Below, piece by piece: positions 8,544-63,319 of a stretch of DNA of 64,000 bases. Position 1 is the first letter of the stretch. The number at the start of each line of letters is the position of its first letter. Source of the stretch: a virus (lineage: Duplodnaviria; Caudoviricetes). The stretch is from the IMG/VR virus record IMGVR_UViG_3300035208_006730. One strand, 5' to 3'. The translations under genes were made by a program, and so were the position numbers. Below the pieces are notes generated by a model, which made no database searches, was not told the origin of the DNA, and saw only the letters and a list, made by a program, of their open reading frames with translations.

Positions 8544-8551
8544 GATGACCT

Positions 8552-35366: not shown

Positions 35367-38300
35367 GACTCTCTCCTTGACGTAACTTGCTGTCAGGCCA
35401 CACCATTTTTATAACACAATTACAGTTAGGATGGAACGGTGGGCATTCATCAAGATCGTAATGAGGTAGCGACTTATCGCCATGTTTTGGAAACGGAAGA
35501 CTAGAAAAAACTATTTCTTTTCTGTTATGCTCTAAACATATAGAGCAATGACTATCGTGAGATTGCTCTCTAATAGCAACATAAATTTTACTTGGTCTAA
35601 CCTTTAATGGATTCGGATCTGGATCATTGGGATTATCAGGGTCTTCTTCTCTTTCTCTCCTTGGCTTTAAAGAATAACAGCCATCCAAATTCCCAAGAAT
35701 AAAAGAGCTTCTAAGTTCCGTTGTATCAATATAGTTTGCTCGATAGCGAAGCGAGTCAAAAACAGTTTTCGCAACATTTGCTATTTCCCCTTGGCTGACT
35801 GAAAGGCTTTGTCCTTTAGTTATAAACACTTTTAATTGATGAAGAAGGTCTTCAGTTAGTCTATCAACTACACCTTCTACGTTTGGACGAAAAATTGTAG
35901 CTTTTCTAATTGAAGAGAATTCTGGAGCAAAGGATGTATCTCCAGATCTACGGCCGTCAAGATTCATGAATCCATTGATATATTCAGAAATACACCTAGT
36001 GAGCAATTCTTCTTTTGTTGGATTGAGGATAGCGCGAATTTTCGCCTTTAACCAATCAGTGTCAGTCTGACCATTTTGAATAGCGGAAACTACCATGTCC
36101 TCAGCAGCATCAAATCTATTTCTCATTATTCCAGGGATAGGTCCAATACTATCTTTGAAGTCTTTAGCTGGAATTGATTTACCTGATGTACCCTTAGGCT
36201 TTGATTGAATCTTGAGTTTTACCGCTTTTTCTTTAGCCGTACGTTCTTCTTGGGCTGCCTCTTCTTCGGCCTGTTTCTCAATCTCAAAGTCCTTCTCGCC
36301 AACCTCGAGAGAACGATTATCGGCTGCAGCTCGGGCAAATGCTGATGAAGCTCTCTTTGTTGCAGAGATAAGAGCCTTTGGCTCGTCAAAGAGTTTCCAG
36401 GCAGTATTGTAAAATTCGGGATACTTGTCCTCTAACCACTCATCAGAAGCCGCTTCTTCTCCAGTTGGAACCCTAATCGGCTTGTACCCTAGTTTAGCTC
36501 TCAATTCTGACCAGGTAATCGCGTTTTTCAAAAAGATATCCACATAGTGATTATCTTGTCGAATTTGTGTATCAATATCTATTTCGAAGAACTTAAATGA
36601 AACAATATTGTCAGAATCGAATATATTTATGTCATGGAAATCTGCTTCTAGGAGCAGCTCTCGAATTATCAAAGAATTGAATAGTTCTTCAACTGCTAGC
36701 TGCATGTCTTTTACGCAATCAATTAAGTTCTGCGACATTGCTTGAGCAGTCGATCTATTACTTGTATTTCCCTGTATTGTGACCTTGCCATTACGTCGGG
36801 TTACAAATAAATGGTTTGGAACATTATAACAGTAGATCGTTCCTTCATAATGCTCCTTAGAAACAAAAGACGAATTTAAAATTCTGGCGTGATATTTTTT
36901 ACTTACTAGTCCTGAAATGAACACTCTGTTAATTATGCGGCCCCAACTTTTTTCATTTTGAACGGTCTCTTTTACTTTTGCAGACAAACCTAAAGAGAGA
37001 GCTAAGACTTGAACATCATTGGCTAATGAGACAGAAGTCGTATAATAAGTTTTATTTGTTGCTCCCTTTTTCTTGCTAATAGTTCCATCTCCCATAATTA
37101 AAGCGTTAAATAGAGCCAAACGTTGCTCAAAATTCCAAGACCAAATAATTTCTGGTAGAAATTTCTCTTTAGCTAATCCGGGACACGAAATTTCTAAAAA
37201 CTTATATAGGGCTTTTGAATAAATCTTTATTCCTGACTGATTTTGTCTTCCAATTCCATTACATTTTATTAACGAAAATGACAAACCACATCTTTCAGCA
37301 CATTGACAAATCTTATCTAAAATTTCTCCCTTATTTTGTGAAATTACTACTCGATAAACTCCTCTATCGCCATTACTTTTATCCAAACAACCTTCGGAAA
37401 TATAATATCCAAGAAGTTCCGCGAAATCTACAAGCTTACATGAAATGTCTTTTGCTCTACCTGTAACCTTTGCATATGACGGCAAAAAGATATCTTCTTC
37501 GTTTTTATTATCAATGGGAGCTGAATCCATCATATAATATTCATTAAATTTTTCATTAAAAAGTTCCCAAGCCTGAACTTTTCTCCAATTCAAGTTATTT
37601 TTATTTCTTGGAGCTACCCACATCTCGTGGTGTGGAGTAACCTTTACGTCTATATGTTTGCCTTTCCAACAAATCATATCTCCAGAATAAAATCCTTCAT
37701 ATTTATAGTTAGCAAAATTAAATTCCATCTTAGACGTTTCGGGGTTAAATGTTGCGATTTTTTCGTTTAAGTGGTTTATTTCCCAATGTTTTTTCCAACC
37801 ATTTTCGGTTAGTGTCTCTGTTTCCGAATCGTAACAGTCGCCTTCTCCAAAGTCTATCGCGCTCATAGACAATCCAGCAAATAGACGCTTTTTAAAATGC
37901 TCGAGATAAGGTTGAGCTTGAAGAGCTTTTCCTTCTGCACCAAGAAGTTTAATCTCGTGATTTTCGGGAGTAACAATTCCTCCCTCAGAAGGCATCCGAG
38001 AAATTCTTCTCTCAGCTATATCAACTTCGCTTTCTCCTCTTTCGGTAATCCCAGCTGGCTTATCTTTATTGCCGACTTGGTAATGAAATAGAGGGAAAAG
38101 GTGTTGATAGATTAAAAGCTCAATATTCTCTTCAATTCGACGAAGAGCTCTAATATCGTCAAGAACTGGAGTCCAGGTTGGAGTTCCAAAAATGAAACCA
38201 TCTTTTCTATTGTAATGAAGATGAACTATGTCTTCTGGAGAGAAATCTTTTTTAAAATTTTCAGTTAAAAAGTGCTGCCAAATTGTAACTCTTTTACCTT

Positions 38301-38814
38301 TTTCATCCAGATCATACTTAATTGTCTCAGGAGGTATTGGAAAATAAGCAGCTACAGGTTCAAGTTGTTTTCCACTAGGAAGTCGTCTAACCTTACCGCC
38401 TGAAGCTTTGGTCACTCTTGTTTTAGCGAGAAAGGCATTAGACTTTCGAACTATCCCAGAAGCAATCGAACGAACCAAATTTCCGATAGAGGATTCTCCA
38501 TCAGAAGCTATTTCCATTTGTTTGAAGCGGTTTTCTATATACTCTACTGTTTTAGGATTATTGCCCTTAAAGAAATAGCCGTTTTTTAAAAATAGTCCAA
38601 CCTTCTTAATGAAGGATTGCATAAGATAGGACTCGGTGTCCTCCGCTCTTCCAGCCTCTCCAAGTTCGTATTCTGGTTCTCTGAGTACTCCACGTACACC
38701 TTGTGTATACAGGGCTGCATAAAAAGTAGAGGGATTTCTAAGTGGAGTCTTAATAAACTTCGGTTCAAAGGGAACCTTTTCTTGACCGGGAGAGATGCTT
38801 TTTGCGTCTGCCAC
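35338..38814 (-). CDS. Portal protein with intein and C-terminal MuF/SPP1 gp7-like head morphogenesis domain
   Basis: Portal motifs FSPEDIVHLHY..FGTP and ITWSELRAKLGYKP; C-terminal CSIC..PPFHPNCNC. Confidence 0.85.
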   Translation of the reverse strand: MADAKSISPGQEKVPFEPKFIKTPLRNPSTFYAALYTQGVRGVLREPEYELGEAGRAEDTESYLMQSFIKKVGLFLKNGYFFKGNNPKTVEYIENRFKQMEIASDGESSIGNLVRSIASGIVRKSNAFLAKTRVTKASGGKVRRLPSGKQLEPVAAYFPIPPETIKYDLDEKGKRVTIWQHFLTENFKKDFSPEDIVHLHYNRKDGFIFGTPTWTPVLDDIRALRRIEENIELLIYQHLFPLFHYQVGNKDKPAGITERGESEVDIAERRISRMPSEGGIVTPENHEIKLLGAEGKALQAQPYLEHFKKRLFAGLSMSAIDFGEGDCYDSETETLTENGWKKHWEINHLNEKIATFNPETSKMEFNFANYKYEGFYSGDMICWKGKHIDVKVTPHHEMWVAPRNKNNLNWRKVQAWELFNEKFNEYYMMDSAPIDNKNEEDIFLPSYAKVTGRAKDISCKLVDFAELLGYYISEGCLDKSNGDRGVYRVVISQNKGEILDKICQCAERCGLSFSLIKCNGIGRQNQSGIKIYSKALYKFLEISCPGLAKEKFLPEIIWSWNFEQRLALFNALIMGDGTISKKKGATNKTYYTTSVSLANDVQVLALSLGLSAKVKETVQNEKSWGRIINRVFISGLVSKKYHARILNSSFVSKEHYEGTIYCYNVPNHLFVTRRNGKVTIQGNTSNRSTAQAMSQNLIDCVKDMQLAVEELFNSLIIRELLLEADFHDINIFDSDNIVSFKFFEIDIDTQIRQDNHYVDIFLKNAITWSELRAKLGYKPIRVPTGEEAASDEWLEDKYPEFYNTAWKLFDEPKALISATKRASSAFARAAADNRSLEVGEKDFEIEKQAEEEAAQEERTAKEKAVKLKIQSKPKGTSGKSIPAKDFKDSIGPIPGIMRNRFDAAEDMVVSAIQNGQTDTDWLKAKIRAILNPTKEELLTRCISEYINGFMNLDGRRSGDTSFAPEFSSIRKATIFRPNVEGVVDRLTEDLLHQLKVFITKGQSLSVSQGEIANVAKTVFDSLRYRANYIDTTELRSSFILGNLDGCYSLKPRREREEDPDNPNDPDPNPLKVRPSKIYVAIREQSHDSHCSICLEHNRKEIVFSSLPFPKHGDKSLPHYDLDECPPFHPNCNCVIKMVWPDSKLRQGESRGKEKFPKI
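36766..37836 (-). mobile_element. Intein with LAGLIDADG endonuclease (357 aa) in the portal
   Basis: GEGD|CYDSETETL..VTPHHEM..IYCYNVPNHLFVTRRNGKVTIQGN|TSN; ELLGYYISEG and FNALIMGDG. Confidence 0.92.
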
Positions 38815-38823
38815 TTATATTTC

Positions 38824-40602
38824 CTATTCTCCAGAGATCCAGTCATTAATCTGTTCGATGCCTATTATACCTGTGTTATTAAATTGACACCCAAATACAA
38901 TTCTACTAGGAGTGACCAAAGTGTCAACTATTCCAGCTAAATATGGATCGATTACTGGGTCGCCAGTCGAAAGCGTTGTTGCTGAAGATGGTACTGCTGG
39001 CCGCTGACCTCCTGGAACTGTCTCGTAATTCAACGGAGGAGTAATTAGCGGTGCAAGTATATCTCGAATTGGATCTATCTGTTCGTCTGGTTCGTCGATG
39101 TGAACTTCACCGTCTGGACCAGTCCATACTTTCCATCCCTTATCCTGAGCGTATTTGTTCGCCATATTGCTTTCTACGATTCTTTTTAAATCTTCTTTAT
39201 CGCAGTTTGGTGAACCTTTCATTGCGTTAATAATTGTAGCGATAGCGGCGATCAAACGGATAAGAGCTAGCTTCTGAGCTTGAGCTCGACCAGTACTCTT
39301 GGAGTATCCAACACAATATTCTTCAACTAGTTTCATGAACTCGCCTACAGCTGTATTGGCAAGTTGCTGGAATCTAGTGGCAGATTGCTGAAGAAAACTG
39401 GCTATGTCATTAGTGAAAGACTGCAGCATTCCTCCAAATCTTCGACCCCAATCAGCATTATCTTTCATTAACTTCGCTGACTTATCTACTCCAGCATTAA
39501 ACGCTTTTCTTCCGCCACCAGTTTCATCTAAAGACTTTGTTTTCCATCCAGCATCTGTCGGATGAGATGGAGTAGAAGCATTGATCGAACCAAGATGATA
39601 TTTATTGGTATCAAACGTCTTTAACTGTTCGTCTGTTGGAATCTCTCCATTCTTTTTGGGGTCTCGGTAGAACATCTGCATGGGCGCGGGGCCACGAAGT
39701 CTAAAGTCTGGGAGTTTAAATGATGACCAATCTAGCTTTCTTGAGAAATTGATTATTGCGTTGATGATGCATTGGATTGGTTTCAATATCAGGTTCATAA
39801 ACTGAATCAGAAGATTTACAAATTCCTGTAATATCGGCATTATCAAGGGGGCAACAAATGACAAAACTAGATCAATCAACATCCCATCAAGAACGATTGA
39901 AATGTCCTGTAGAAGAGCTGAAAGAGCAGCAAGCATTGTGAAAAGATCTGGAAAACATACCCAGTTCAACATAAATTCGATGAAAGCACATGGATCAATG
40001 TATTGCCCAATACCTTTGAGCATGTTTATCATTTCATTGATTTGAGCTATAGTTTCCCGCCAAAACTTTTCGAACGCTTCTCTAACGCTATCAAATGGAT
40101 TGGTTAAAAGACCTTTTGCGTCTTTACCCCATCGAGCAAATTCTTCGCCGATACTACGAAAGTCACAAGGAATGCAATCTTTAAACATCTTTCGACGGAA
40201 AGCTTCACCCATTTCTTTAGAAGAGGTGTTATCTTGAGAACCTGAGTCTGACTGTTGTTTGCTCTCGTCCTTTTCAAAAAGACTGCCAATTGCTCCTGGG
40301 ATGGGGAGTAGCGCAGATGCGATTTTCATCGGAACTTTGAAAACATCGGCCGCGCCCGAGCGTCCTTCATCAATTAGGCTTTCTAACTCTTTACTCTGCT
40401 CCTTCAGGTCATTGGAAAAGGCTTGAAGACGTTTACCTGTAGCTAAATCGGTAAATCTTTTCGAAGCTTTGTACATAGAACCTGTATTCGCAAGTTGTGG
40501 AACAAACATTGCGTACACAGATCTCTCGTCTGTAGAGAATGCACAACCATGCTCAAAAGCTCGAATGATCGTAAAACAGTCTGCAAAATCTGCGGTTGCC
40601 AT
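38824..40602 (-). CDS. Hypothetical protein with long hydrophobic helices and Cys motifs
   Basis: 592 aa; CIPC; hydrophobic stretch at ~aa 205-285; between terminase and portal. Confidence 0.55.
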   Translation of the reverse strand: MATADFADCFTIIRAFEHGCAFSTDERSVYAMFVPQLANTGSMYKASKRFTDLATGKRLQAFSNDLKEQSKELESLIDEGRSGAADVFKVPMKIASALLPIPGAIGSLFEKDESKQQSDSGSQDNTSSKEMGEAFRRKMFKDCIPCDFRSIGEEFARWGKDAKGLLTNPFDSVREAFEKFWRETIAQINEMINMLKGIGQYIDPCAFIEFMLNWVCFPDLFTMLAALSALLQDISIVLDGMLIDLVLSFVAPLIMPILQEFVNLLIQFMNLILKPIQCIINAIINFSRKLDWSSFKLPDFRLRGPAPMQMFYRDPKKNGEIPTDEQLKTFDTNKYHLGSINASTPSHPTDAGWKTKSLDETGGGRKAFNAGVDKSAKLMKDNADWGRRFGGMLQSFTNDIASFLQQSATRFQQLANTAVGEFMKLVEEYCVGYSKSTGRAQAQKLALIRLIAAIATIINAMKGSPNCDKEDLKRIVESNMANKYAQDKGWKVWTGPDGEVHIDEPDEQIDPIRDILAPLITPPLNYETVPGGQRPAVPSSATTLSTGDPVIDPYLAGIVDTLVTPSRIVFGCQFNNTGIIGIEQINDWISGE

Positions 40603-41324
40603 TAGGCGGCTCCCCCAAACTGTTCAGTCATATCTGAATTCAAATCAGTTAGTTGCTGTTTGGCTTGAGCACCACTGTTTGGAGTACAAATTTCTTCTGG
40701 AATCAGTTGATTTAGAGGAGGCGGAATAATACTCCGAATAACCTTTAGGAGAAACATTTTCCACAACATATTCATTAACATACAAAGGAGCATATCCTGA
40801 AACTCTTCGATATCAATTGGCTCAATCACTTGGCCCTGTTTGGTTAACTCTGGTCTATTTAATCCAGCCTTAGCACTATCTGAGAGCGCTTGAATCGGAA
40901 TATCTTCTGGATTAGCTCTCATTCGCTGGATTTCGTCTTGATCTGGAATTAACGTTTCAGCAACATCATTGCCTCTTTGAGATAAACCTTCACGACATTC
41001 TTTGTATTGGCGATAGGTTATTCTTGGTTTATCGATCTTGAAGCGACGACGAAGAGCATCTATGACATGTTTGTCTCGAATTGGATCTAGGTCAATGTAA
41101 AAACTGTCACATTCTATGTCAACCTTAGCTTGAACTGCTTCAGCTAAGATACGTCCAGCTTGAGCTAGATTGTCTATAATTTTAAATTTGTCGTCTTCTT
41201 TTTGGGGAGATAGTCTTTCAGGTAGCCCTTCAGGAGGTGGGCCGTCAAATTTTGGTTCTATGTATCTAATCTTAGGACGATAATTTAATATACCCTGATC
41301 TTCTTTGTCTATCTTTTTTGTCAT
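40602..41324 (-). CDS. Hypothetical protein
   Basis: 240 aa; overlapping stop/start with both neighbours; hydrophobic C-terminal helix. Confidence 0.55.
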   Translation of the reverse strand: MTKKIDKEDQGILNYRPKIRYIEPKFDGPPPEGLPERLSPQKEDDKFKIIDNLAQAGRILAEAVQAKVDIECDSFYIDLDPIRDKHVIDALRRRFKIDKPRITYRQYKECREGLSQRGNDVAETLIPDQDEIQRMRANPEDIPIQALSDSAKAGLNRPELTKQGQVIEPIDIEEFQDMLLCMLMNMLWKMFLLKVIRSIIPPPLNQLIPEEICTPNSGAQAKQQLTDLNSDMTEQFGGAA

Positions 41325-41770
41325 TAGACATCGCTTTCGGTCGCGGAAACCTTAAATCGTACGGTCTTTAGCCGTTGAACTGGGATAGATGCTGGAATTT
41401 CGATTCGAATCCAAACTGGTAACCAAGTATTGGTGTCAGTAAGATCTGAAAGATCTATTTCCCCTGGGGAACCTGGGATAGCGTAGTTAATTGTTGACCA
41501 TTCGTCTGATGTTGGTTGTGTATCGCCCGCGAAAAGTTTGAAAGAAAATCCATCATCTCCACCAACAAAATCGATCTCCAAAGTGTCAAATTGCTCGATT
41601 GACATAGATATATCTTCGTAAACGTGCAAACTGTCATCGTTTCTTACGAAAATTTTTACTTCATGGATACCACCAATTCGGCCATCGAAGTTATGTAAAA
41701 ATGCGTTAGTGAATGTACCAGAACTATATGGGGTACTGTCGCCCTGATTTTCGTAGAGCTGAATTGACAT
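41324..41770 (-). CDS. Hypothetical beta-rich virion protein
   Basis: 148 aa; coupled to the terminase stop; PVWIRIEIP motif. Confidence 0.5.
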   Translation of the reverse strand: MSIQLYENQGDSTPYSSGTFTNAFLHNFDGRIGGIHEVKIFVRNDDSLHVYEDISMSIEQFDTLEIDFVGGDDGFSFKLFAGDTQPTSDEWSTINYAIPGSPGEIDLSDLTDTNTWLPVWIRIEIPASIPVQRLKTVRFKVSATESDV

Positions 41771-44700
41771 TAGATATTACTCCTCTGCGGTCGATAGGTC
41801 CTGGACCTAATGATAGCATTGCCAGATTCCTTTGTCACTCCAAAGTATTTTCGCATGTTAACTACGCGACTATTTTCTGCAACGTGAGCAGCTGGAATGA
41901 TGGTTTTGGGTCTAGTAAAAAGATCCGTTCTTTGTTCTGGCTTTTTGATTTCTTTAGATTTTTCTTCTGAAACAACAAATCCCATTTTCGCAAGAGGAAC
42001 GTCATCTGTACGAACCTCGCTGCCAGCAGAAAGATTGATTCCTTTAGTAAATCTAACATCTGTGACTGGAACTGGCTTGCCAAGGCCACTAAACTCAAGA
42101 GCAAAAGCTACAAGCCCCAGCATTACCGCGTCTAACTCATGATCTCCACTCTCACCTGGCTTATAGACCGCTTTACCAGAAGGAGCCACATGATCAATGA
42201 CATAGCCTTGCAATTGAGAACTAAGCTGTTCGTCTTCTTCTGGATAACGGAAAAGTCCATTCTCAATGTACCGAACAGCATTTTCGACCATAAAGTTCTT
42301 AGCTGGTTCTTTTTTCTTTTCTCGAGTGAAAAGATCTCTGATCTCAACTGTTGAGCCAGAGTCATAAAAGAATGTACATCGAAGGAATGCATCTGGATGA
42401 TTCGGCCCGCGTTGTTCATCTGCAAGGGCATCGTATCCCCATTTATGTAACATCTCTTCTTGTGTTGCTCCAAATCCTTTATCTGCATAAATCGCTTTTG
42501 GCTTCCAGATTCGATTAAGCCGAGCAATCTCTTCGCACGCTTTGTGCTGAGTATATCCGACCTGCTGTACGCAACAAAAGTCTACAAGATAAATGTACTT
42601 ATTAGATGGATTTTCTCCAAGAACTACAATATTTACACCATTCTTAATATCATTCCAGTCGCAACCAATAATATAACGCCATCCAGTAGTTGGGACAAAA
42701 TCTCCATATTTATAGTTACTTTTGGCGATAGAGATGTATTGATTTTGGAAAACCCCGCCCTCCATTTCCCCAAATTCCGAAAGAACTTCGTGTATATAGC
42801 CTATTCTGGTTAAACGTTTTTTATAGAACAAATCAAGTTTTTCATTCCACAGGGGATTTTCCGTAGATGGAAGATGGAACTCTTTAATTGTGTCGTCAAA
42901 ACACATCTTGTAAAAACTCTCTCGTTTGCCCGTAGGAGTAGAGCTGGCCCAAGTTTGGGCATCTGGAGAGTTTGTAATAATCGACATCGCAGCATCCATG
43001 TCGTCTTCATTCAGCATGTCTGATTCGTCAAAAACTAGAAGATTAGCGTGCTGACCACGGGCTGCTGCTGCACCATTATTAGATTTGCTTCCCGCAGTGA
43101 ATCCGATAACGCTCGACTTGTTTGCTAGTTCAAGTGTATATTGGGGAGCCTTCACTGAACGGACAATGGAGTTGCGAAGTTTTTCAGAGCTAAGGATTAA
43201 ATCATTTAAACGTTTAAATACAAGATCAATTTGCGATTGAAATGGAGCAATAAGAACTATCGCAAAACCTTCATCCTCTGGACAGTCCGGTCTCATGAAA
43301 AGAAGATAAAGCATTGCGATTACAAGAGCTTCCGTATTATGTGTAATAATATTGTTTGCAATGAAATTATGCGTATCTGGAACAGTTAAATCCCATGTCA
43401 TTTTATTACCAACATGGATAACAGATCTTACGCGAATAAAAGCTATGTCACCATCTTCATAAACTTCTGTTTTCGGAGAAGCCTTCATTTGAAGAGACAT
43501 TCTATAAACAGCTTCTACTGCTTGATCTTTACCTAATATCCCAATTTTATTTCGAAAGTTTTTTATAGATTCCTTTCTAGAGATACAGATTTGACGCGCA
43601 TATAGTTTGCCCTCTTTGCACTTTACTGTCTTGAATCTAACGTCAGCGTAAATGCAAAATCTAGCCAATAGGGCGATTATTTGGCTAGCTAGCCTTTCTG
43701 AAACTGTACAGTAACCAATTTGAATTTGACCCCTTTTAGAAATAGAAGCCCAACCATCACACCCAAATAAACATCGTAATAATTCAATCGTATTTTCATC
43801 ATCTAGGGTCATGAACTCATCGGGAATATACTTTTTATGCGAGTTAAGGCCATAAATACCTATTGTCTTTAACCATTCCTTAAGTGGATGTAATTTACCA
43901 ACACCTTCTCCTAAAATATGGTAATCGCAATTAGTCTTATCTGATTCATATTGGTATAGTGTACAGTTATAGTTTTTTAATGCAGTCTCAAAACGAGAGA
44001 GTATTTGTTCATTCGTATTAGAAAATCTGCAATTATTGGAGGTTAGATTTCCATCCGCAATCATACATCCAAGAATTGTCATTTGGTAATTTGGAACATG
44101 TTTCGTTAAGCTCAGGTTTAAGTTCTTTGGGACAGCTACATAGCAGTCATTAGTTAAATCTTGAGCTTCTAACCACTTATCTTCTAAAATTACATGTCTT
44201 AATCCAGTAGTTGCTTTACCCTGTTTTTGTCTGACCAAAAATGGATGATGCTCAGTAGCCTCTATTTCCCTACCATCCATTAAAGTAATACGCATTACTG
44301 GTTTAATTCCATTACAAGCACGAAGAGCAGGGTTAACTACAGTAAAATAATTCCTATCTAGAGATACTACTAAATCTCCATCCTGAACTTCTTCTATTGG
44401 ACGTTGACTACCATCTGCCATCTGAATCAACGTACCAGAGACTAAACATTTTCCAAGCTGTCTTCCTAGTCGGTATACCTTTTGTTTGGCTGAGCAATTA
44501 TGAACTACCAAACCATTAGCTATAAAATTATGTCGCGTATCTACTTCAATATCGTAAACAATTTCTTGGCCCGCATATTCTATATTGACGATTTTGGTGC
44601 GTGTCAGACAAGAAAGACCGCCATGCCGACGCCAATGCGTACGCATCGCCAAATTATCAATTGCTTTTCTACTCTCTAATTCCTTCCCATACACTAGACC

Positions 44701-46032
44701 ACAGAAATTAAAAAATTGTTCCTGATCGGCAATACGCTCTATTCTAAGAGAAACTCCCTTAGCATCAATATCTTTTTTATCTTTATAAATATGGCTCGCA
44801 TATATCCCAATTTTTTTTAATAAATACCTAAATAAAAGTAAAAAATTTCTATTACCATTTGATAAATTCAAATGCGTAATTCCAAAGCCGCCCTCGGCCC
44901 CTTCGTAGGTATAAATACAACCATCGCCAGACCAACAGCGATTAATAAAAGCGCCCAAGGCAATAGCGGAAAAATGAAACGCATATTGTAAAATACTGAT
45001 TTCTCGTGTTATCTTGTCATAACAACCAATCGATCTCAGAAAAACCAGTAAAGGTGAATCGCGATTAGAGAAAGCTACACTCCAAAACCTATGATGAGTA
45101 ACTCCATCTTTGCTGATACGCTCAGGATGAAATCTAATTTCACTGTCTTTAAGTCCAAAAACTTTATCCGCTAACATAACAAATTCATCGACATATTCTT
45201 TGCGGATATTACTAAATTCAACTACGTGTTTTTCCCCAATTTTACCAGAGTTGCAAACATATCCGTCAGTTACGATATAGCCTAAAAGTTTAGCTAAATC
45301 CTGATCATTATTGTCCCCAAAAATAGCGAACTGATTGAGCGTATAAACCTTATCGCCAATTGAAAGTCCATCTTCAAGCGTTTTATAAACTCGCTTAAAA
45401 GATTTACAATCGAACATCTCATTAAGAGCCCCATCTTTGTACCAACTCAGAATAGGATGATTTGCCGTTACTTTAAGTGTGTCGCCATTTTCTAATGTAA
45501 CCCTCCAAAGGTCTCTCACTCCATTTTGAAATTTCCGCAATACGGCATAACTTCGTTGTGTTTGTTTTCTCCCCTCGTTATAAGTTACAACTTTATCTCC
45601 CACCTCTACATCACGAATCTTCTTGATCGTACCATCGGCCATAAAAATATCTGTATCGCCATGCAAACATCTCAACAGTGTAGCTTGATAGGGTCGATGA
45701 TATCTTGAATGACCAAGAATACTTTCTCCTGGATGTCTTGCAATCCATTTTTGGTATTCTTTTGGATTTTTACGTTTCCAAACTTCACCGTCTGGATCTA
45801 GGCAATGCCAGTCCAAATAGTCTGCGGCCCAAATGACAGGGTCAAAGAAAGCTTCAATTTCTCTTTTAGTTAGTTCTGGATTATCTCTGATTAGTTCTGG
45901 CGTTGCATACTCTTTTGGAATACCGTCACATTCTATTTTAAATTGAAGTCTGCCGCTTGTGGCTCCAAATTTTTTCTTGTACGCCTTAACGCAAGATATA
46001 CATTCGTGAGAACATTCGTTGAGATTCAGCAT
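41770..46032 (-). CDS. terL: Terminase large subunit with two inteins (~658 aa spliced)
   Basis: Spliced sequence restores RPYQ..GRQLGK|TE (Walker A), ARGQHANLLVFDE (Walker B), SSTPTG, and nuclease motifs IIGCDWN, IYADKGFG, DHELDA. Confidence 0.93.
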   Translation of the reverse strand: MLNLNECSHECISCVKAYKKKFGATSGRLQFKIECDGIPKEYATPELIRDNPELTKREIEAFFDPVIWAADYLDWHCLDPDGEVWKRKNPKEYQKWIARHPGESILGHSRYHRPYQATLLRCLHGDTDIFMADGTIKKIRDVEVGDKVVTYNEGRKQTQRSYAVLRKFQNGVRDLWRVTLENGDTLKVTANHPILSWYKDGALNEMFDCKSFKRVYKTLEDGLSIGDKVYTLNQFAIFGDNNDQDLAKLLGYIVTDGYVCNSGKIGEKHVVEFSNIRKEYVDEFVMLADKVFGLKDSEIRFHPERISKDGVTHHRFWSVAFSNRDSPLLVFLRSIGCYDKITREISILQYAFHFSAIALGAFINRCWSGDGCIYTYEGAEGGFGITHLNLSNGNRNFLLLFRYLLKKIGIYASHIYKDKKDIDAKGVSLRIERIADQEQFFNFCGLVYGKELESRKAIDNLAMRTHWRRHGGLSCLTRTKIVNIEYAGQEIVYDIEVDTRHNFIANGLVVHNCSAKQKVYRLGRQLGKCLVSGTLIQMADGSQRPIEEVQDGDLVVSLDRNYFTVVNPALRACNGIKPVMRITLMDGREIEATEHHPFLVRQKQGKATTGLRHVILEDKWLEAQDLTNDCYVAVPKNLNLSLTKHVPNYQMTILGCMIADGNLTSNNCRFSNTNEQILSRFETALKNYNCTLYQYESDKTNCDYHILGEGVGKLHPLKEWLKTIGIYGLNSHKKYIPDEFMTLDDENTIELLRCLFGCDGWASISKRGQIQIGYCTVSERLASQIIALLARFCIYADVRFKTVKCKEGKLYARQICISRKESIKNFRNKIGILGKDQAVEAVYRMSLQMKASPKTEVYEDGDIAFIRVRSVIHVGNKMTWDLTVPDTHNFIANNIITHNTEALVIAMLYLLFMRPDCPEDEGFAIVLIAPFQSQIDLVFKRLNDLILSSEKLRNSIVRSVKAPQYTLELANKSSVIGFTAGSKSNNGAAAARGQHANLLVFDESDMLNEDDMDAAMSIITNSPDAQTWASSTPTGKRESFYKMCFDDTIKEFHLPSTENPLWNEKLDLFYKKRLTRIGYIHEVLSEFGEMEGGVFQNQYISIAKSNYKYGDFVPTTGWRYIIGCDWNDIKNGVNIVVLGENPSNKYIYLVDFCCVQQVGYTQHKACEEIARLNRIWKPKAIYADKGFGATQEEMLHKWGYDALADEQRGPNHPDAFLRCTFFYDSGSTVEIRDLFTREKKKEPAKNFMVENAVRYIENGLFRYPEEDEQLSSQLQGYVIDHVAPSGKAVYKPGESGDHELDAVMLGLVAFALEFSGLGKPVPVTDVRFTKGINLSAGSEVRTDDVPLAKMGFVVSEEKSKEIKKPEQRTDLFTRPKTIIPAAHVAENSRVVNMRKYFGVTKESGNAIIRSRTYRPQRSNI
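43336..44448 (-). mobile_element. Intein with LAGLIDADG endonuclease (371 aa) in the terminase Walker A
   Basis: GRQLGK|CLVSGTLI..ATEHHPF..TWDLTVPDTHNFIANNIITHN|TEA. Confidence 0.95.
44497..45669 (-). mobile_element. Intein with LAGLIDADG endonuclease (391 aa) in the terminase
   Basis: LLR|CLHGDTDI..VTANHPI..VYDIEVDTRHNFIANGLVVHN|CSA. Confidence 0.95.
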
Positions 46033-54860: not shown

Positions 54861-55267
54861 CAGGCGAACAAGTTATTGAACTTTGGAAACAACATCAAAA
54901 AGAAGAAAGAACAGAACGTAAAGGAAAAGAAAGTTCCGAAAGATACTGGAAACAATCTGGAGCTCTAACAATAATCCTACCAAGACAATCCGGCAAAACA
55001 ACAACTCTGATCCCAGCTCTAACAAGTTTTTTGGGACCCAATTGTATCGAAGTTACTCCAAGAATTAGATTTGAGAATAAAGATCATCCACTAATTTACG
55101 AAACTAAAATAGCTTCTCTTTTTGAATGGTGGGAAAGGCCATTTGATCCTGCAGATTTTCACTGCATTGTAGATGACTTTACATTTTGCAATCAAAAGTT
55201 TTTCGAAGGTAGATGGAAGTCTCTAACCCTATTTGGATCATTATCTGATATCAGGTTTGCACGATGA
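54857..55267 (+). CDS. Small P-loop protein with terminase-like Walker A
   Basis: 136 aa; IILPRQSGKTT and HCIVDD. Confidence 0.55.
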   Translation: MTGEQVIELWKQHQKEERTERKGKESSERYWKQSGALTIILPRQSGKTTTLIPALTSFLGPNCIEVTPRIRFENKDHPLIYETKIASLFEWWERPFDPADFHCIVDDFTFCNQKFFEGRWKSLTLFGSLSDIRFAR

Positions 55268-55464
55268 TTACTATCTCTAAAGATATGGAAGAATGCCTTG
55301 AAGCCTTTTGTAAGAAACATTCTCTCTCCCCCACAAGAGCTCTCAACCAAGCAATTAATGATTTTGTTTCTAGAGATATTGAATTCTCAATAGTAGGTGC
55401 ACCAGTTCTTGCAAGATTGTCCGCGAAAGAAATTAAAAAACTCCAGAAAGTCTGTTCTGAATAA
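55264..55464 (+). CDS. Ribbon-helix-helix DNA-binding protein
   Basis: MITISKDMEECLEAFCKKHSLSPTRALNQAINDF. Confidence 0.6.
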   Translation: MITISKDMEECLEAFCKKHSLSPTRALNQAINDFVSRDIEFSIVGAPVLARLSAKEIKKLQKVCSE

Positions 55465-55516
55465 TTCTTGCCTTTTATCATTTGGTCATGGTATCCTGAT
55501 AATCAGGAGGTGCTAA

Positions 55517-55669
55517 ATGAAACAAGGTGAAAGAAAAGAAGTCTGGATTTCCAAAGAACTCCACAAAAGAATCAAGATCAAAGCCGTAACGGAGGATGTA
55601 CGGATGGAAGATCTTGTAGCAAAAATCCTAACAGAAAAACTAGATGAAGAGGAAAAGAAGAATGACTGA
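55517..55669 (+). CDS. Ribbon-helix-helix DNA-binding protein (50 aa)
   Basis: Not in the ORF track; AGGAGGT RBS; KEVWISKELHKRIKIKAVTEDVRMEDLVAKIL. Confidence 0.7.
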   Translation: MKQGERKEVWISKELHKRIKIKAVTEDVRMEDLVAKILTEKLDEEEKKND

Positions 55670-56468
55670 AGAAATGGTAAGAATTGAAAACGTACAAATC
55701 GGAGATGATCAAATTGAAGCGATTAGGGACAAAAATGAGGGTTGGGTTGTAGTAAAAAGAATGTGTGAAGCATTGGGGGTCGATGCGAATGGACAGAAAC
55801 AGAGACTAGATAACAGTTCTTGGGCAACTACGTGCATTATCCACGCAGTTGGAAACGATGGAAAACAAAGAGAAATGTTCTGTCTATCGGTGAAAAGTGT
55901 TCCAATGTGGTTAGCAACTTTACAAACAAGTCGTCTCAATAAAACGATTCGTCCCAAAATAGAACAGTTTCAAAGAGAAGCTGCTGAAATTCTATTTAGA
56001 TGGGCAGAACAAAGACCTCCGGCAAAAATGCCCACTCATTTAGAAGCTCTAGAGGGTTGGACAGCTGAACTAAGACATTCTATTGCGTTGGAAGAAGAAA
56101 ATAAAAATCTGGCGGTAATTACCCAAAAACAAGAAGAACAATTAGCTCTTGAAGCTCCAAAAGTAAAGAATTACGAAAAGTTCCTTTCTACTGATGGAGA
56201 TTATTCTCTCCAAGCGGCAGCAGAAATTCTTAAATGGGGCAGACAAAGAATGATTAACACTCTTCTTAATAAGGTGTGGTTCAGAAATCCTAATGGAGAA
56301 ATTGTTCCTTACCAACAGTATATAGATAGAGATCTATTCAAAGTTAAATCTGGAACCTATTTCAATGAAGTAACAAGCAAAACTAATTCTTATGTTAAAA
56401 CTGTAGTAACCCCCAAAGGTCTTGAATTCCTTTCTAACCATTTAGAAACTTCAGAAGCCCTGAACTAA
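55662..56468 (+). CDS. Phage antirepressor (P22_AR N-terminal + KilAC/ANT C-terminal)
   Basis: VVVKRMCEALGVD..GNDGKQREMFCL..PMWL; APKV..PYQQYIDRDLF..TVVTPKG. Confidence 0.88.
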   Translation: MTEEMVRIENVQIGDDQIEAIRDKNEGWVVVKRMCEALGVDANGQKQRLDNSSWATTCIIHAVGNDGKQREMFCLSVKSVPMWLATLQTSRLNKTIRPKIEQFQREAAEILFRWAEQRPPAKMPTHLEALEGWTAELRHSIALEEENKNLAVITQKQEEQLALEAPKVKNYEKFLSTDGDYSLQAAAEILKWGRQRMINTLLNKVWFRNPNGEIVPYQQYIDRDLFKVKSGTYFNEVTSKTNSYVKTVVTPKGLEFLSNHLETSEALN

Positions 56469-56493
56469 CCCCTCCCCAATCTCCCCCCCCTCC

Positions 56494-56547
56494 AATTATT
56501 TTTCGAGAAAACTCTTTAATAACAGGTTTTAAGAATTATTTTTCGAG
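56494..56547. repeat. Two 14-bp direct repeats AATTATTTTTCGAG, 40 bp apart
   Basis: 56494-56507 and 56534-56547, just after a C-rich tract. Confidence 0.6.
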
Positions 56548-56641
56548 GATACTAGATAGTAAATAAGTCTATCCCTGCCCTTTCGTTTTGAGGGGCCGGG
56601 GTCGATAAACCGTGACAAAAATGTCACAAAGGAGAATGACC

Positions 56642-56902
56642 ATGTATGCCAAGGATATTAACCACATTAAGGAACGTTTATCAAGGATGCATGAGCGTGA
56701 CAGAGATTACTTCATGAACAAGATGAAACTGGTAGCAGAGAAGAAGGGATCGTATCTGTCTACTTGTAACAGTTGGATGGTAGTAGTAGTGCGTAACAAT
56801 GAGCGTATTGCCTCTGCCGTAGGGCATGGCAATCAATGGGATACGGTGCTGTCTGCAGGCATGACCTGCAAGGATAGTAGTGCAGTAATCATTACTGCAT
56901 GA
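56642..56902 (+). CDS. Hypothetical protein
   Basis: AAGGAG RBS 7 nt before ATG 56642. Confidence 0.55.
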   Translation: MYAKDINHIKERLSRMHERDRDYFMNKMKLVAEKKGSYLSTCNSWMVVVVRNNERIASAVGHGNQWDTVLSAGMTCKDSSAVIITA

Positions 56903-57017
56903 TTGTCCAACACATAACCTCTATTACTGTAATAAGGCAGTAGTAGAGAGTAAAGGGCTAAAGGCAGCCCATAATGCCTTCTCTTCTTACTGTACCTTAG
57001 GGTACAAGGAGTCTATC

Positions 57018-57968
57018 ATGACTACTATCACTAACGTTCGTGAAGCAAAACAAACCCTCATTAACATGGAAGCCCTTCTGCCCATGGCTCGCAAGCCTGA
57101 GCAAGCGTGTAGGCTCGTTGAAGAGCTCAGGGTTTCGATCAATGTGGCTGAGCAAGAGGCAGCAGATGTCTTGTTGCTCAAGCGTGCAGCTAAAGATGCG
57201 GCTGCATGGGCAGCTACCATTGATGAGAGCTACCTGGGTTCTCGTCCACGTCAGCAAGTGGGTAAGAATCGTGACTTGCTCATCGGGGCTATCGAGAAGT
57301 TAGTTTCTGTTGAACGGTCCCTCCTCGTCATCACTGACGAAGAAGGGAAAGAACTCGGCAAGAGAGGCCGAGTCGAAAAGGAACTGGTAGAGACTCGCAA
57401 GGCAGCGCGTGCTGCCCTTGATAAGCTCAACAGTGGACGTGAATATATGGGACTTTCACGTCTCTCTCCCGAAGAAGTGCGCACTCTTGTGGAGCTCGAG
57501 TATGAGCGCCAAGAAAAGGAGGAAGGTCAACGGGACGACGACAGCGTCATCTCATACGTCGCCGATCAGGGAGTCGGTGTTGAACATGGGCTCAATGCCG
57601 ACTCTTTGAGAGAAGACATTGGCGACGAGATCTCAAGGTCAGAGGCTATTGCGGAGTATTCATTGTACTCCGTTGATCCTAAGTGGTCTGAAAAGGCTAC
57701 TAAACGGATCCTCGATTGCATGGATCCAAACGGTTTGGGGCGTGCAACTCGCCCCATGTCGTTCAATGGCAAGTCTCTTGTTTGGAAAAACGGTATCGCC
57801 TTTTGGATGCCGTTAACCCATTATTCAGTGAAGCAGTCGTTAGTGTGGCTTCAAGGCCACAAAGGGAATGGGCGGCTCGGCATGTTGCGTGATCCTCGAT
57901 TCACGCAGGAACATCGTCAAGTATTGATGGAGTTCGTGAGTAACTCCTGGGAACATTTCAACAGTTAA
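57018..57968 (+). CDS. Hypothetical helical protein
   Basis: 316 aa; AAGGAG RBS; no recognised motif. Confidence 0.65.
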   Translation: MTTITNVREAKQTLINMEALLPMARKPEQACRLVEELRVSINVAEQEAADVLLLKRAAKDAAAWAATIDESYLGSRPRQQVGKNRDLLIGAIEKLVSVERSLLVITDEEGKELGKRGRVEKELVETRKAARAALDKLNSGREYMGLSRLSPEEVRTLVELEYERQEKEEGQRDDDSVISYVADQGVGVEHGLNADSLREDIGDEISRSEAIAEYSLYSVDPKWSEKATKRILDCMDPNGLGRATRPMSFNGKSLVWKNGIAFWMPLTHYSVKQSLVWLQGHKGNGRLGMLRDPRFTQEHRQVLMEFVSNSWEHFNS

Positions 57969-58035
57969 CTCTTTCGTCCTGGGCATTGACGATAAAAGGC
58001 CCTGTTTCTTTAACTTATTTGCCTAGGAGATTACA

Positions 58036-58233
58036 ATGAGAAAAACTAAGAATTTATTGGATTTGGCTCGTGAAATTGGGGATTCTAACTATTTCACCAT
58101 CTTCGACGAGAAAGGAGGGGGTGAAGCTATTTATCAAACTTTCGATCTTGCATTGGAGGTTCGCGCCTCCAAAAGGATCAAGTTCAACAAGGAGTTCTAC
58201 ATTTATCATGGTCCCAAAGACATGGTGGTGTAG
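58036..58233 (+). CDS. Hypothetical protein
   Basis: 65 aa; AGGAG RBS. Confidence 0.55.
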   Translation: MRKTKNLLDLAREIGDSNYFTIFDEKGGGEAIYQTFDLALEVRASKRIKFNKEFYIYHGPKDMVV

Positions 58234-58552
58234 TCGCTCCGCCGTTCGGTCTGCTGAGGGCTCCCGCCCTCATCATCCCTCTCTCACTCCCCCGATTCTC
58301 CATCGCTTCGCTCTGGAGAATCTCGAACACCCCCAACCTGGATGACGACAACTAGTCATCGCAGACCCAGAAACGAAGGGAGGAAGGGCTGTTGCCCTTC
58401 CTTTCCCTTCGTTTCGTTTTAGCTCTCGCTGCTTCGCAGCTTTCGCAAAAACAGTGCCAGGAGACAACAGGTTGCTTTCTCCTAATTTCTGCCCTGGCAC
58501 TTTCCCTCAATAATACTCGGAAATAGTTGAGTATTTCAGTATTAAAGAGGGT
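58234..58552. other. Highly structured non-coding element
   Basis: At least seven inverted repeats, including a closing helix ggtctgc/gcagacc around three hairpins and a ~20-bp hairpin at 58370-58415. Confidence 0.7.
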
Positions 58553-58597
58553 TTTGTGTTAACAATTTCGATTGCTCGAAAGAGCAGGGAGAATACA

Positions 58598-58888
58598 ATG
58601 CTTTACAGATCAGTGATAGCTCGGAACGAGGGATTCAGCACTATTAACGGTAATTATTCCTGCTCATGCTGCGAGGAAGATTCTGGCGTAGAGGCAGGTC
58701 AGGGCTGCCTCTGGGTGCTATGTCCTATTTGTAATGATAAAGGGATTCACTGTGAATCACAAAGAAATGGCAATGTAGCTGTGTGTGACAAAGAGCTTTC
58801 CGATTGGCTTTATGAAAATGATATTCAATTGGCGGATTTCGATCCGCGTGAGCATCGGGAACTCTTCGAAATCGAGGTTCAGAAATGA
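58598..58888 (+). CDS. Small Cys-rich (zinc-binding) protein
   Basis: CSCC..CPIC; GGGAG RBS before ATG 58598. Confidence 0.55.
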   Translation: MLYRSVIARNEGFSTINGNYSCSCCEEDSGVEAGQGCLWVLCPICNDKGIHCESQRNGNVAVCDKELSDWLYENDIQLADFDPREHRELFEIEVQK

Positions 58889-60095: not shown

Positions 60096-60641
60096 ATGCA
60101 AAGGCACACCAGTCCCAAACAAATCCCATGCTCAAGATGCGGAAAACTAACTTACATTCAAACGTGTCAAGATTGTAAAAAGATAATCAAAAAAGAAGAA
60201 CGACAACTTAAATTAACGAAAAAGAAATTTCTTCAGATTATGAAGAGAAGGATAAAACAACTTTCCCAAACCAACCCAAAAACCAAGCGCACTCCAAAAC
60301 TAACAAAATATAATTACATTAAACTTACATCTTTATCTCAAGATGAAAGGGAATTATTTAGTTGTATGTTCAGAAACGGCCAAATACCAGAGCACCGTCT
60401 TGTCTTGGCAAAATTCTTAAAACGACCTCTCTTAAAAAACGAAATCGTTCATCACATCAACGGAAATAAAAAAGATAACAGAATTGAAAACCTTCTGCTC
60501 TGTAGAGATTCGACAGAACATCTCTTCATTCATTTGAATAAAGGAGAGCTCGTTCAAAAACTCCTAAGTAGGATTTCATATCTCGAATCTCTTCTTCAAG
60601 AAAATAACATTGAAATAGCCGCTTTCAACCCCAACCTCTAG
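60096..60641 (+). CDS. HNH homing endonuclease
   Basis: EHRLVLAKFLKRPL..EIVHHINGNKKDNRIENL..EH; N-terminal CxxC..CxxC. Confidence 0.85.
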   Translation: MQRHTSPKQIPCSRCGKLTYIQTCQDCKKIIKKEERQLKLTKKKFLQIMKRRIKQLSQTNPKTKRTPKLTKYNYIKLTSLSQDERELFSCMFRNGQIPEHRLVLAKFLKRPLLKNEIVHHINGNKKDNRIENLLLCRDSTEHLFIHLNKGELVQKLLSRISYLESLLQENNIEIAAFNPNL

Positions 60642-61269: not shown

Positions 61270-61585
61270 TCTGTCCCAGTTAGGAGACAGAAATGTTTGA
61301 GAGAAAAGAGGACAATAAGTAGAATGGAGTTGATTTGACGGGTTATTTAATGACAGGAAGATACCATTCTTTACCTGTTAATTCTTCCTCCTCCTCTCCT
61401 CTCTCTTTCTATCTCTTCTATTTATCTCTTTACTATCTTTGAAGAATACATTGAAAAGGGTATCAGGGTTTAACGTCTATAATTGCTCTTTTTGATCTAT
61501 TAGAGGAAAGAAAAGAGATTTCAATGGTTTATCTAAAGCTCTATTAAAGAGTTATTTTTGTTGAGAATTCTTCCATTTTTGGATC

Positions 61586-61885: not shown

Positions 61886-62100
61886 AACGCCTAATCGAAG
61901 AATGCCCTTTCCTTTCCTCGTTCACCTTCTTGGATGAAAATTACTACGTCCTTCCGATGACAAAAGGGCAGAAAGATGCGATAAAAAGATCTGAAGTAAA
62001 AGTCGCATCACTCGACTCGGGAAAAGAAATGTCCATTCCGTTCGGAACGATGGTAACATCCCACTTCAACACTCCATGGGAAGAGATGAATCTCAAATGA
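61882..62100 (+). CDS. Hypothetical protein
   Basis: 72 aa; AAGGAG RBS. Confidence 0.55.
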   Translation: MKRLIEECPFLSSFTFLDENYYVLPMTKGQKDAIKRSEVKVASLDSGKEMSIPFGTMVTSHFNTPWEEMNLK

Positions 62101-62447
62101 TCAAAATCAAAAATCTCCGAAACTCTAAGCCTTCAGAACCTTGGGATGTCAAAGTCGACAGATCATCTATTCTTGGCAATCCATACCTAATGCTCAATGA
62201 GAGTGAAAGAGAATCAGTCTGTGCTAAATATGAAAAATGGTTCCTAGACATAGTTACAAGTGAAACTACAAACGAAAAAAGGAAGGAATTCAAAGCAGAA
62301 CTTCAACGGCTCCGAACGATCTACAAAAAATATGGCAAATTGAATCTATTCTGCTGGTGTGCGCCGAAAAAATGCCATGCAGAAACAATTCGTCAATGGG
62401 TAAATGGTAGCAGTTGCAACAACTCTTCTCGAACAGAAAGGAACTAA
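62097..62447 (+). CDS. DUF4326 family protein
   Basis: VDRSSILGNPY..LFCWCAPKKCHAETI. Confidence 0.85.
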   Translation: MIKIKNLRNSKPSEPWDVKVDRSSILGNPYLMLNESERESVCAKYEKWFLDIVTSETTNEKRKEFKAELQRLRTIYKKYGKLNLFCWCAPKKCHAETIRQWVNGSSCNNSSRTERN

Positions 62448-62815: not shown

Positions 62816-63319
62816 ATGATCATCATGCTCACTGGTCACCGACCAGAAAAATTAGGAGGCTACAAACCAAACCCAATTCAAAACTGGGTAATTGAACAAC
62901 TCGACGCCCTCCTCAAAAGAGCCCTCCATTCAGATCCAAAAGTCGAAGTTATCTCAGGTATGGCTCTCGGCGCAGATCAATGGTGGGCAACTTGTGCAAT
63001 CCGTCAAGGTATCCCTGTCCACGCGTTTATTCCATTCGAAGGCTATTACTTGAAATGGCCAGAAACTTCCATGGAAACCTACAAACAGATCCTTTCTCAA
63101 TGCGTTGAAGTCAAAATCTGCTGTCCTCCTGGATACCAAGCAGAAAAAATGCAAATCCGTAATGAATTGATGGTCATGGCAGCTACTCATCATGTAGCAA
63201 TTTGGGATGGATCTTCTGGAGGAACGGCAAACGCAGTCAAATACATTAAACAACAAGGTCTGAAATACTACCGAATCAATCCCATCACCAAAACTCAAGG
63301 ATGGATCGATCAAAAATGA
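62816..63319 (+). CDS. YspA/DUF1273-like SLOG family protein
   Basis: TGHRP..ISGMALGADQW..RNELMV..WDGSSGGTANAV. Confidence 0.88.
   Translation: MIIMLTGHRPEKLGGYKPNPIQNWVIEQLDALLKRALHSDPKVEVISGMALGADQWWATCAIRQGIPVHAFIPFEGYYLKWPETSMETYKQILSQCVEVKICCPPGYQAEKMQIRNELMVMAATHHVAIWDGSSGGTANAVKYIKQQGLKYYRINPITKTQGWIDQK

Follow-up and report, generated by a model that had tools for sequence, protein, structure and literature searches.

The 364-nt gap at 58234-58597 is non-coding and holds a structure that is real and statistically strong. We tentatively propose that it is a composite start-stop punctuation module of the early, plus-strand arm of a phage genome, acting at two levels. It is best read as RNA-level terminators (H4 and H7, with H6 on the opposite strand) that are interleaved with DNA-type mini-hairpins on the template strand. 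New here is the apparent resemblance of one of these mini-hairpins, H5, to early promoter P3 of phage N4. The idea of a DNA-hairpin promoter, raised in a preliminary description of this DNA, is partly supported. Part of the cluster appears to be ordinary RNA-level termination, which was absent from that description.

Genome context of the gap

We analysed a window of 64,000 nt, corresponding to bases 92522-156521 of a 158,879-nt IMG/VR virus contig; coordinates are those of the window unless another contig is named. Longer assemblies of the same phage measure 182.5-185.8 kb. The phage carries a tail sheath gene and is predicted to be a large myovirus with a contractile tail. Its closest cultured relatives, Bacillus phage 0305phi8-36, Acinetobacter ME3 and a Moorella phage, are remote, with 27-40% identity over part of the sheath. 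Among the window ORFs that were scanned, the terminase and portal are both longer than usual, and we read their extra length as probable intein insertions. Overlong genes with internal HNH/intein-like segments were seen at G000 6329-10189, 38838-43628 and 54887-58612 and at window positions 35338-38814 and 41770-46032; they encode the ribonucleotide reductase, DNA polymerase, primase-helicase, portal and large terminase. The ribonucleotide reductase, the DNA polymerase and a 1241-aa fusion of a DnaG-type primase with a DnaB-type helicase are encoded elsewhere on the contig.

Genes run leftward from 1 to 54128, and a rightward arm of small genes, mostly orphans, starts at about 54.4 kb. The longer assemblies add at least another 20 kb to this arm beyond the contig end. 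Almost all genes called in these 20 kb encode fewer than 300 aa, the largest being a 483-aa orphan; two SSB genes and a dCMP deaminase gene are among them (L074 16935-17318 and L077 18145-18480 lie in this part of the arm). Several assemblies end near the same point past the IMG/VR contig, which suggests a repeat there.

Other features of the arm lie on both sides of the gap. A C-rich tract (56469-56493) after an antirepressor gene precedes a palindrome, GTGACA-N5-TGTCAC (56612-56628), that sits immediately 5' of the ribosome-binding site of the gene at 56642. Further along, a 316-nt gap contains the longest pure pyrimidine tract of the contig (29 nt, 61382-61410) and a good sigma-70-like promoter (61297-61325). 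Polypurine and polypyrimidine tracts as such are spread genome-wide, and we rejected them as a signal specific to the 364-nt gap. Genes for an HNH endonuclease, a DUF4326 protein and a SLOG/YpsA (DprA-like) protein are located at 60096-60641, 62076-62447 and 62816-63319, and the early regions of N4, RiverRider and Presley contain scattered genes with the same three annotations. We rejected the idea that an N4-like early module had been transferred, as relatives of the SLOG/YpsA and DUF4326 proteins of the arm occur across many phage groups and not specially in schitoviruses.

The gap lies between two plus-strand genes. Upstream, a 65-aa gene (58036-58233) ends with a TAG stop at 58231-3, as defined by ORF and gene calls; its product (P0005) is an orphan domain that is found as three repeats within one 4321-aa protein of a representative library. 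Downstream, a gene for a 96-aa CxxC protein (58598-58888) has the ribosome-binding site GGGAGA at 58587-92 and its ATG at 58598. At 51-57%, the GC content of the gap exceeds the genome value of about 40%, and the GC skew is locally reversed. Small ORFs in the gap (44-aa, 13-aa and 64-75-aa) had no family matches, and their make-up is explained by base composition. The 44-codon ORF (58392-58526, plus strand) starts with TTG, encodes two hydrophobic stretches and has a Shine-Dalgarno-like GGGAGG that is buried in the H4 stem. Its passage through H4-H7 is probably a base-composition effect.

Folding of the gap

Folding both strands with DNA and RNA parameters, as the preliminary description had proposed, revealed structure far beyond chance (z -7.7 to -9.2). 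The RNA fold had z-scores of -9.0 on the plus strand and -8.8 on the minus strand, the DNA fold of -7.7 and -9.2, and in neither case did any shuffle fold equally well. The six other gaps of the arm range from -0.21 to -0.33 kcal/mol per nt, compared with -0.415 for this one. When the whole 159 kb was folded in sliding 150-nt windows, the gap ranked among the two strongest-folded stretches of the contig, its sole match in folding strength lying about 1.4 kb upstream.

Strong folding is also a regional property of the arm. The 150-nt windows with the strongest excess folding gather at 56700-58550, coding parts included, and most of the strongly folded windows of this phage are in the small-gene arm, with two outliers elsewhere on the contig. 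A complete 188.7-kb relative that encodes the 1445-aa polymerase family discussed below (G006, IMGVR_UViG_3300021603_000001) has every window with z < -3 within its own small-gene arm (177200-185900). The strongly folded arms of both phages have a GC content of 0.5-0.6 versus 0.40-0.45 for the genomes.

All 96 base pairs in 58234-58552 are Watson-Crick pairs, with no G.U on either strand and no A.C. The unpaired bases of the plus strand are 72% pyrimidine and 10% G, so the loops and mismatches of the minus strand are purine-rich. They comprise loops of GGGA, GAA (twice) and GGA (once), a tandem G.A in H2 and a GAAA/GAGA internal loop in H5. The RNA fold of the minus strand is lower by 15 kcal/mol than that of the plus strand. 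Hairpin by hairpin, the strands are nearly equal, differing by 0.4-2.1 kcal/mol, with the minus strand favoured in H1, H2 and H5 and the plus strand slightly favoured in H3, H4 and H8. The view that the element folds as minus-strand ssDNA is upheld in part: the heptamers described below, the lack of G.U pairs and the purine mismatches speak for it, but strand energies that differ by only 0.4-2 kcal/mol do not.

Architecture of the hairpin cluster

The helices named in the preliminary description were all recovered at the same positions, as were its minus-strand loops, namely GCGAAGC at 58305-11 and 58431-37, GCGGAGC at 58236-42 and GGGA in H1. The cluster starts with H0 (58236-58242, minus strand), which consists of the heptamer GCGGAGC with a 2-bp stem only and no flanking inverted repeat. 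It is followed by domain J (58248-58367), a 120-nt four-way junction in which a perfect 7-bp helix (58248-54/58361-67) closes H1, H2 and H3, with linkers that are C-rich on the plus strand. Because this helix closes over 120 nt, the domain needs a long single strand, either RNA or ssDNA, and not local cruciforms. Within it, H1 (58255-72) has the loop TCCC on the plus and GGGA on the minus strand. H2 (58294-58322, minus strand) combines a 9-bp stem, a tandem G.A internal loop and a GC-GAA-GC tip, which read as a TC/TC internal loop and a GC-TTC-GC tip on the plus strand. H3 occupies 58341-60.

H4 (58370-58420, plus strand) is a 20-bp hairpin at 58370-415, followed by G and TTTT. Its stem of 12 + 8 bp with a 2-nt bulge is worth -35 to -36.5 kcal/mol, depending on the flanks, and should be long enough for RNase III. 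No T-run follows the stem on the minus strand. H5 (core 58428-40, element 58428-58446, minus strand) has a 5-bp stem and a 3-nt loop, C-GAA-G, on the template strand, inside an outer helix GTTTT/AAAAC (58416-52). On the plus strand it reads GCTGC-TTC-GCAGC, then TTTC, then G at 58445, with the loop centre at 58434. H6 (58453-501, with its U-tract 58447-58501, minus strand) contains a 9-bp closing stem and inner helices and ends in a minus-strand tail of G + UUUUU (58451-47). H7 (58504-551, with its tail to 58560, plus strand) is a 48-nt AT-rich hairpin closed by CCCTC/GAGGG and followed by TTTTGTGTT. To these we add H8 (about 58573-86, element 58572-58600, plus strand), GCTC-GAAA-GAGC with the loop GAAA, which abuts the GGGAGA ribosome-binding site and the ATG of the 96-aa gene. 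No two of the eight hairpins are alike in sequence.

Terminators and promoters

T-runs in the gap are strand-specific. H4 (G + TTTT) and H7 (TTTTGTGTT) are followed by one on the plus strand alone, and H6 (G + TTTTT) on the minus strand alone. The hairpins thus carry the U-tracts of intrinsic terminators, G + UUUU for H4 and UUUUGUGUU for H7 in the plus orientation and G + UUUUU for H6 in the minus orientation. H4 looks like a plus-strand intrinsic terminator, H7 like a plus-strand terminator or attenuator, and H6 like a terminator of the minus strand. Given these U-tracts, H5 lies between two opposed terminators.

We found no sigma-70-like promoter on the plus strand of the gap, which is therefore expected to be transcribed from upstream upon read-through of H4. 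The minus strand has weak promoter-like sites at 58539 and 58565, scoring 8-9/12. Counts of k-mers across the genome revealed no shared promoter word.

DNA-type mini-hairpins on the template strand

Three GCGNAGC heptamers, all on the minus (template) strand, lie within 200 nt of the 364-nt gap (P = 3.6e-4 under a null model with the dinucleotide make-up of the gap itself). Both strands of the 158,879-nt contig contain 18 such heptamers, among which only the two GCGAAGC sites of the gap (58305 and 58431) cap an extended hairpin. No other GCGNAGC heptamer was found in 29.5 kb of the arm. As DNA, d(GCGAAGC) melts at 76.5 C, and the RNA of a related octamer, r(GCGAAAGC), at 39 C (PMC13037366). 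DNA mini-hairpins of this kind are far stabler than their RNA versions and are found at the G4 priming site, at ssiA and in N4 promoters (PMC13037366). The heptamer enrichment, this contrast in stability and the absence of G.U pairs favour a DNA-level constraint, which would act on the template strand in H0, H2 and H5. The DNA-type signature is real, and sharper than was visible in the preliminary description.

Comparison of H5 with the N4 early promoters

We took the N4 early promoters P1-P3 from NC_008720 and compared their non-template strands with H5. P1 reads GTTGC-TTC-GCAAC, then TTATGG; P2 reads AAGAAGC-TCC-GCTTCTT, then TTGG; and P3 reads AAGCTGC-TCC-GCAGCTT, then TTGG. The H5 counterpart, GCTGC-TTC-GCAGC, then TTTCGC, equals P3 at 16 of 18 positions from -17 to +1. 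The two mismatches are at the loop centre, where H5 has the base of P1, and at position -1. G 58445 lies exactly 11 nt from the loop centre, as does the N4 start G. From its sequence, H5 looks like a site built in the manner of an N4 early promoter.

The determinants known from N4 lie on the template strand (PMC4496689). Hairpin extrusion depends on a C:G closing pair and on the 5' G and 3' A of the loop, and recognition by the virion RNA polymerase on a purine at -11, a G at each of -10 and -8, and a C at +1 (PMC4496689). H5 has every one of these determinants. All three heptamers, GCG(A/G)AGC, share the G-(A/G)-A loop, the C:G closing pair and the G at -8 of N4. Only H5 among them has the N4 stem of 5-7 bp with a 3-nt loop, as the tips of H2 and H0 have 2 bp. 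H5 also has the N4 arrangement at +1, where a template C (RNA G) lies past a non-template T-run, 11 nt away from the loop centre. H2 departs from the N4 pattern in its tandem-mismatch stem, the lack of a T-run and an A at +11, and H0 has T there, with A instead of C on the template strand.

H5 scores 15 on a 17-point N4 consensus and is the only site on the contig that reaches 14 or more, the runner-up scoring 13. In the 20-kb extension beyond the contig, no site reached 13/17. Among 150 Markov-simulated genomes, 4.7% yielded one such N4-like site, and the match to N4 is by itself borderline. Among nine promoter-like hairpins of five schitoviruses including N4, eight have GG at +1/+2 together with T or A at -1; H5 misses this pattern, with G then C at +1/+2 and C at -1. 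Recurrence in several copies before early genes was not seen, H5 being a single site in 159 kb plus the 20-kb extension. Of the three heptamer sites, H5 alone follows the N4 stem, T-run and start rules, and H2 and H0 do not; the single site and the lack of a cognate polymerase count against an N4-type promoter.

Candidate enzymes

No match to a T7/N4-like polymerase (PF00940, N4 gp16) was found in the 159-kb contig, and the polymerase survey covered about 179 kb of the 182.5-kb contig. The PHROG matches of the large virion proteins of 1974, 2123 and 1445 aa included no RNA-polymerase family: the 1974-aa protein matched lysin/peptidase families and the 2123-aa protein weakly matched families of unknown function, and the 1445-aa protein had no match. 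The other large ORFs that were scanned encode the terminase, portal, a nuclease-kinase fusion, the tail sheath, ribonucleotide reductase, DNA polymerase, primase-helicase and tail proteins.

We aligned the 1445-aa tail-region protein (8552-12889, minus strand) with seven homologues of 21-24% identity. All eight share an invariant A1028-D1030-D1032-D1034 (A-D-x-D-x-D) loop. The ADxDxD loop is the metal-binding signature of two-barrel RNA polymerases, and the protein is accordingly predicted to be a two-barrel virion RNA polymerase that is unrelated to the N4/T7 type. For P23-45 gp96, the sole studied two-barrel virion enzyme, mapped transcript starts and ChIP-seq led to the proposal that it uses a linear motif rich in AT (PMC10770324).

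The 1445-aa family is present in 15 IMG/VR contigs of 36-189 kb. The motif GCTYCGCNNCTTT (heptamer, then stem and T-run) occurred in 0 of these 15 contigs. A looser pattern gave 30 matches versus 26 for the reversed control, so there is no enrichment. The suggestion that the element is a promoter for the 1445-aa polymerase was not borne out, considering that the motif does not recur, that the 15 family contigs lack it and that the two-barrel relative is proposed to use a linear motif.

The G006 genome has other triloop hairpins, GCATCGC-CTT-GCGATGC and GGGATGC-TTC-GCATCCC (177128-177205; L041, L072). They are GC-rich with 7-bp stems and lie 30-90 nt 5' of the first gene of its small-gene arm, near the end of the terminal repeat. 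These hairpins are suggestive and share no motif with the gap. Heptamer clusters at 101 kb and 154 kb of G006 were discounted, as they are inside genes.

Searches for related elements

The element has no second copy in its own genome, and no relative was found to carry it. The 316-aa and 96-aa proteins of the arm have no homologues among 5.8 billion proteins, and variants in the protein clusters were only alternative start calls. Three other contigs, from three sequencing runs and among 12 with the 316-aa gene, are 100% identical across the gap. Because the aligned copies are identical and the neighbours of the gap are orphans, no covariation signal can be obtained. The single homologue of the 65-aa gene (48% identical) belongs to an unrelated phage contig; there, 8 nt separate it from the following gene, and no hairpin gap is present.

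Exact-word scans with H4, H2 and H1 against viral and metagenome collections returned chance palindromes only, and blastn and tblastn against 50,697 phage records gave no match to the region. An Rfam search of the 64 kb had nothing at gathering score, the best hits being miRNA hairpin models (E 0.04). ARAGORN predicted no tRNA or tmRNA. No terminal inverted repeats or target duplication were seen around the element.

Interpretation of the gap

In the proposed start-stop module, H4 and H7 would stop transcripts that arrive from the upstream genes, and H6 those from the opposite direction. After 3' trimming, the U-tract hairpins would protect the stopped transcripts. The H5 mini-hairpin would be extruded or exposed on underwound or single-stranded template DNA, where one of the two SSBs of the phage would perhaps hold it, and it would mark the start of RNA synthesis at G 58445. 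The resulting RNA could be a leader for the gene at 58598, or alternatively an RNA of about 110 nt that ends at H7, or a replication primer made by the DnaG-type primase. The enzyme that would read H5 is not an N4-type polymerase.

In favour of this proposal are the strong fold of either strand (z about -9, among the two strongest-folded stretches of 159 kb), the 96 pairs without G.U or A.C, and the clustering of heptamers on the template strand only. The agreement of H5 with P3 and with the N4 template determinants, the strand-specific T-runs after H4, H7 and H6, the N4 precedent of a terminator before P2, the encoded primase-helicase and SSBs, and the lack of a plus-strand sigma-70-like promoter in the gap all point the same way, as do the DNA stability of the mini-hairpins and their presence at phage priming sites and N4 promoters (PMC13037366). 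Against it stand the single copy and the absence of a relative that carries the element. About 5% of genomes of this size would yield an N4-like match by chance, and here the G at +2 and the T/A at -1 are missing. The putative start is separated from the next gene by H6 and the terminator-like H7, no cognate polymerase was found, contigs with the two-barrel family show no motif enrichment, and the strand energies are nearly equal. Perfect palindromes can, in addition, be evolutionarily young and functionless.

A possible but somewhat doubtful alternative is that the gap is purely an RNA-level structured intercistronic spacer in the plus-sense early transcript. H4 and H7 would then terminate or attenuate, the hairpins would be barriers to RNase III or exonucleases, the spacer may release 3'-UTR-derived small RNAs with C-rich single-stranded seeds, and the template heptamers would arise incidentally from pyrimidine-rich loops. 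Since the genes on either side both read in the plus sense and the gap has no internal promoter, its transcription must be in this sense. The U-tracts after H4 and H7, the 20-bp H4 and the composition of the unpaired plus-strand bases (72% pyrimidine, 10% G) agree with such a spacer, as does the 7-bp closing helix, which needs a long folded single strand. RNA-level selection does not explain why 96 bp contain no G.U pair, nor why GCUUCGC and GCUCCGC, which are not special RNA loops, are present three times. The internal loops are U.C/C.U on the plus strand but G.A on the minus strand, and no Rfam family matched. C-rich UCCC-type seeds are known in Firmicute sRNAs (PMC2790875, PMC4132741). In the gap, TCCC was counted by hand five times versus about three expected from local composition, which is no real signal of a C-rich motif, and we rejected a C-rich-seed sRNA on this count and on the lack of a promoter.

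We consider it unlikely that the gap has no dedicated function and consists of recent palindromes, which arose through template switching or remain from a mobile or foreign segment, with a coincidental likeness to N4. It is an orphan element among orphan genes with deviating GC content (51-57% versus about 40%) and GC skew, its all-Watson-Crick stems are typical of young inverted repeats, and its N4 score is at the 5% chance level. However, neither terminal inverted repeats, a target duplication nor a second copy was found in the genome and collections scanned, and the eight hairpins all differ in sequence. Nested closing helices and ordered U-tracts are improbable by accident, and the sequence is identical in the three other aligned contigs from three sequencing runs.

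A narrower claim than the start-stop module, and one we hold to be distinctly unlikely, is that H5, perhaps with H2 and H0, provides template-DNA start signals for the two-barrel RNA polymerase or the DnaG-type primase. If true, short terminator-ended RNAs (58445 to about 58556) would prime replication or open the early arm, and DNA-hairpin promoters would have an origin separate from the N4 polymerase lineage.

Very unlikely, in our view, is an antisense ncRNA of the minus strand whose purine-rich loops (GNRA, GNA and tandem G.A) are RNA tertiary or protein-binding motifs, and which ends at H6 and its U5 run or continues through domain J. The GGGA, GAA and tandem GA of the minus strand do resemble functional-RNA loops, its RNA fold is the lower by 15 kcal/mol, H6 with UUUUU is terminator-like, and promoter-like sites exist at 58539 and 58565. 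Yet these sites score only 8-9/12, no terminator was found past domain J, and a transcript terminated at H6 would stop short of the heptamer hairpins. In z-score the minus strand does not surpass the plus strand, the hairpins lack G.U pairs, and there was no Rfam match. Finally, the possibility that H5 acts as a decoy RNA, mimicking host guide-RNA repeats through its GTTTTAG...CAAAAAC ends (58416-52, 37 nt), which presumably resemble type II CRISPR repeats, is close to negligible and was rejected, as a scan of 185,579 species genomes for array-shaped patterns found one unrelated 30-nt repeat array only and no matching array, and GTTTT is equally the U-tract of H4.

Comparison with known systems

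On the terminator side of the start-stop module, H4, H7 and, on the minus strand, H6 are like intrinsic terminators in being GC-closed hairpins followed by 4-7 U. They differ in that three occur within 190 nt and in both orientations, that the H4 stem is unusually long at 20 bp, and that five further hairpins of the gap have no U-tract. The PeSL cassettes of T4-type phages, reportedly described by Arbiol et al. in 2010, are said to be short and present many times per genome with a sigma-70 early promoter. Like them, the gap lies between small early genes in a large myovirus and combines a terminator hairpin with a putative start signal; unlike them, it is single, 320 nt long in its structured part and without a sigma-70 promoter.

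H5 shares with N4 P1-P3 a template hairpin with a 5-bp stem, a C-GAA-G triloop, the G at -8, a T-run and a G at 11 nt. As in N4, where a terminator lies immediately before P2, a terminator-like hairpin is located just upstream of H5. Unlike the three N4 sites, the site here is single and not near a known genome end, has GC instead of GG at +1/+2 and C at -1, and is separated from the next gene by 153 nt and two hairpins. The phage that carries it is a predicted myovirus without an N4/T7-type polymerase. To our knowledge, DNA-hairpin promoters come only from N4-like phages with a T7-like virion polymerase. A working example in a myovirus that injects a two-barrel polymerase would make the template mini-hairpin start more general on injected or replicating phage DNA, and would offer a handle on the promoters of two-barrel virion polymerases or on the origins of large phages. 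If the likeness is due to chance, the gap would be an ordinary case of dense terminators and stabilizing hairpins in an orphan region.

The complementary-strand origin of G4 and the ssiA and ssiB signals of RSF1010 likewise have about three hairpins over 120-140 nt (PMC13037366). These carry mini-hairpins of the GCGAAAGC/CCGAAGG type that resist SSB (PMC13037366). They act on ssDNA genomes or plasmid strands, whereas the genome here is double-stranded, and we saw neither an AT-rich unwinding element nor iterons at the gap. The gap does carry a hairpin cluster with mini-hairpins, and the phage encodes its own DnaG-type primase-helicase and SSBs.
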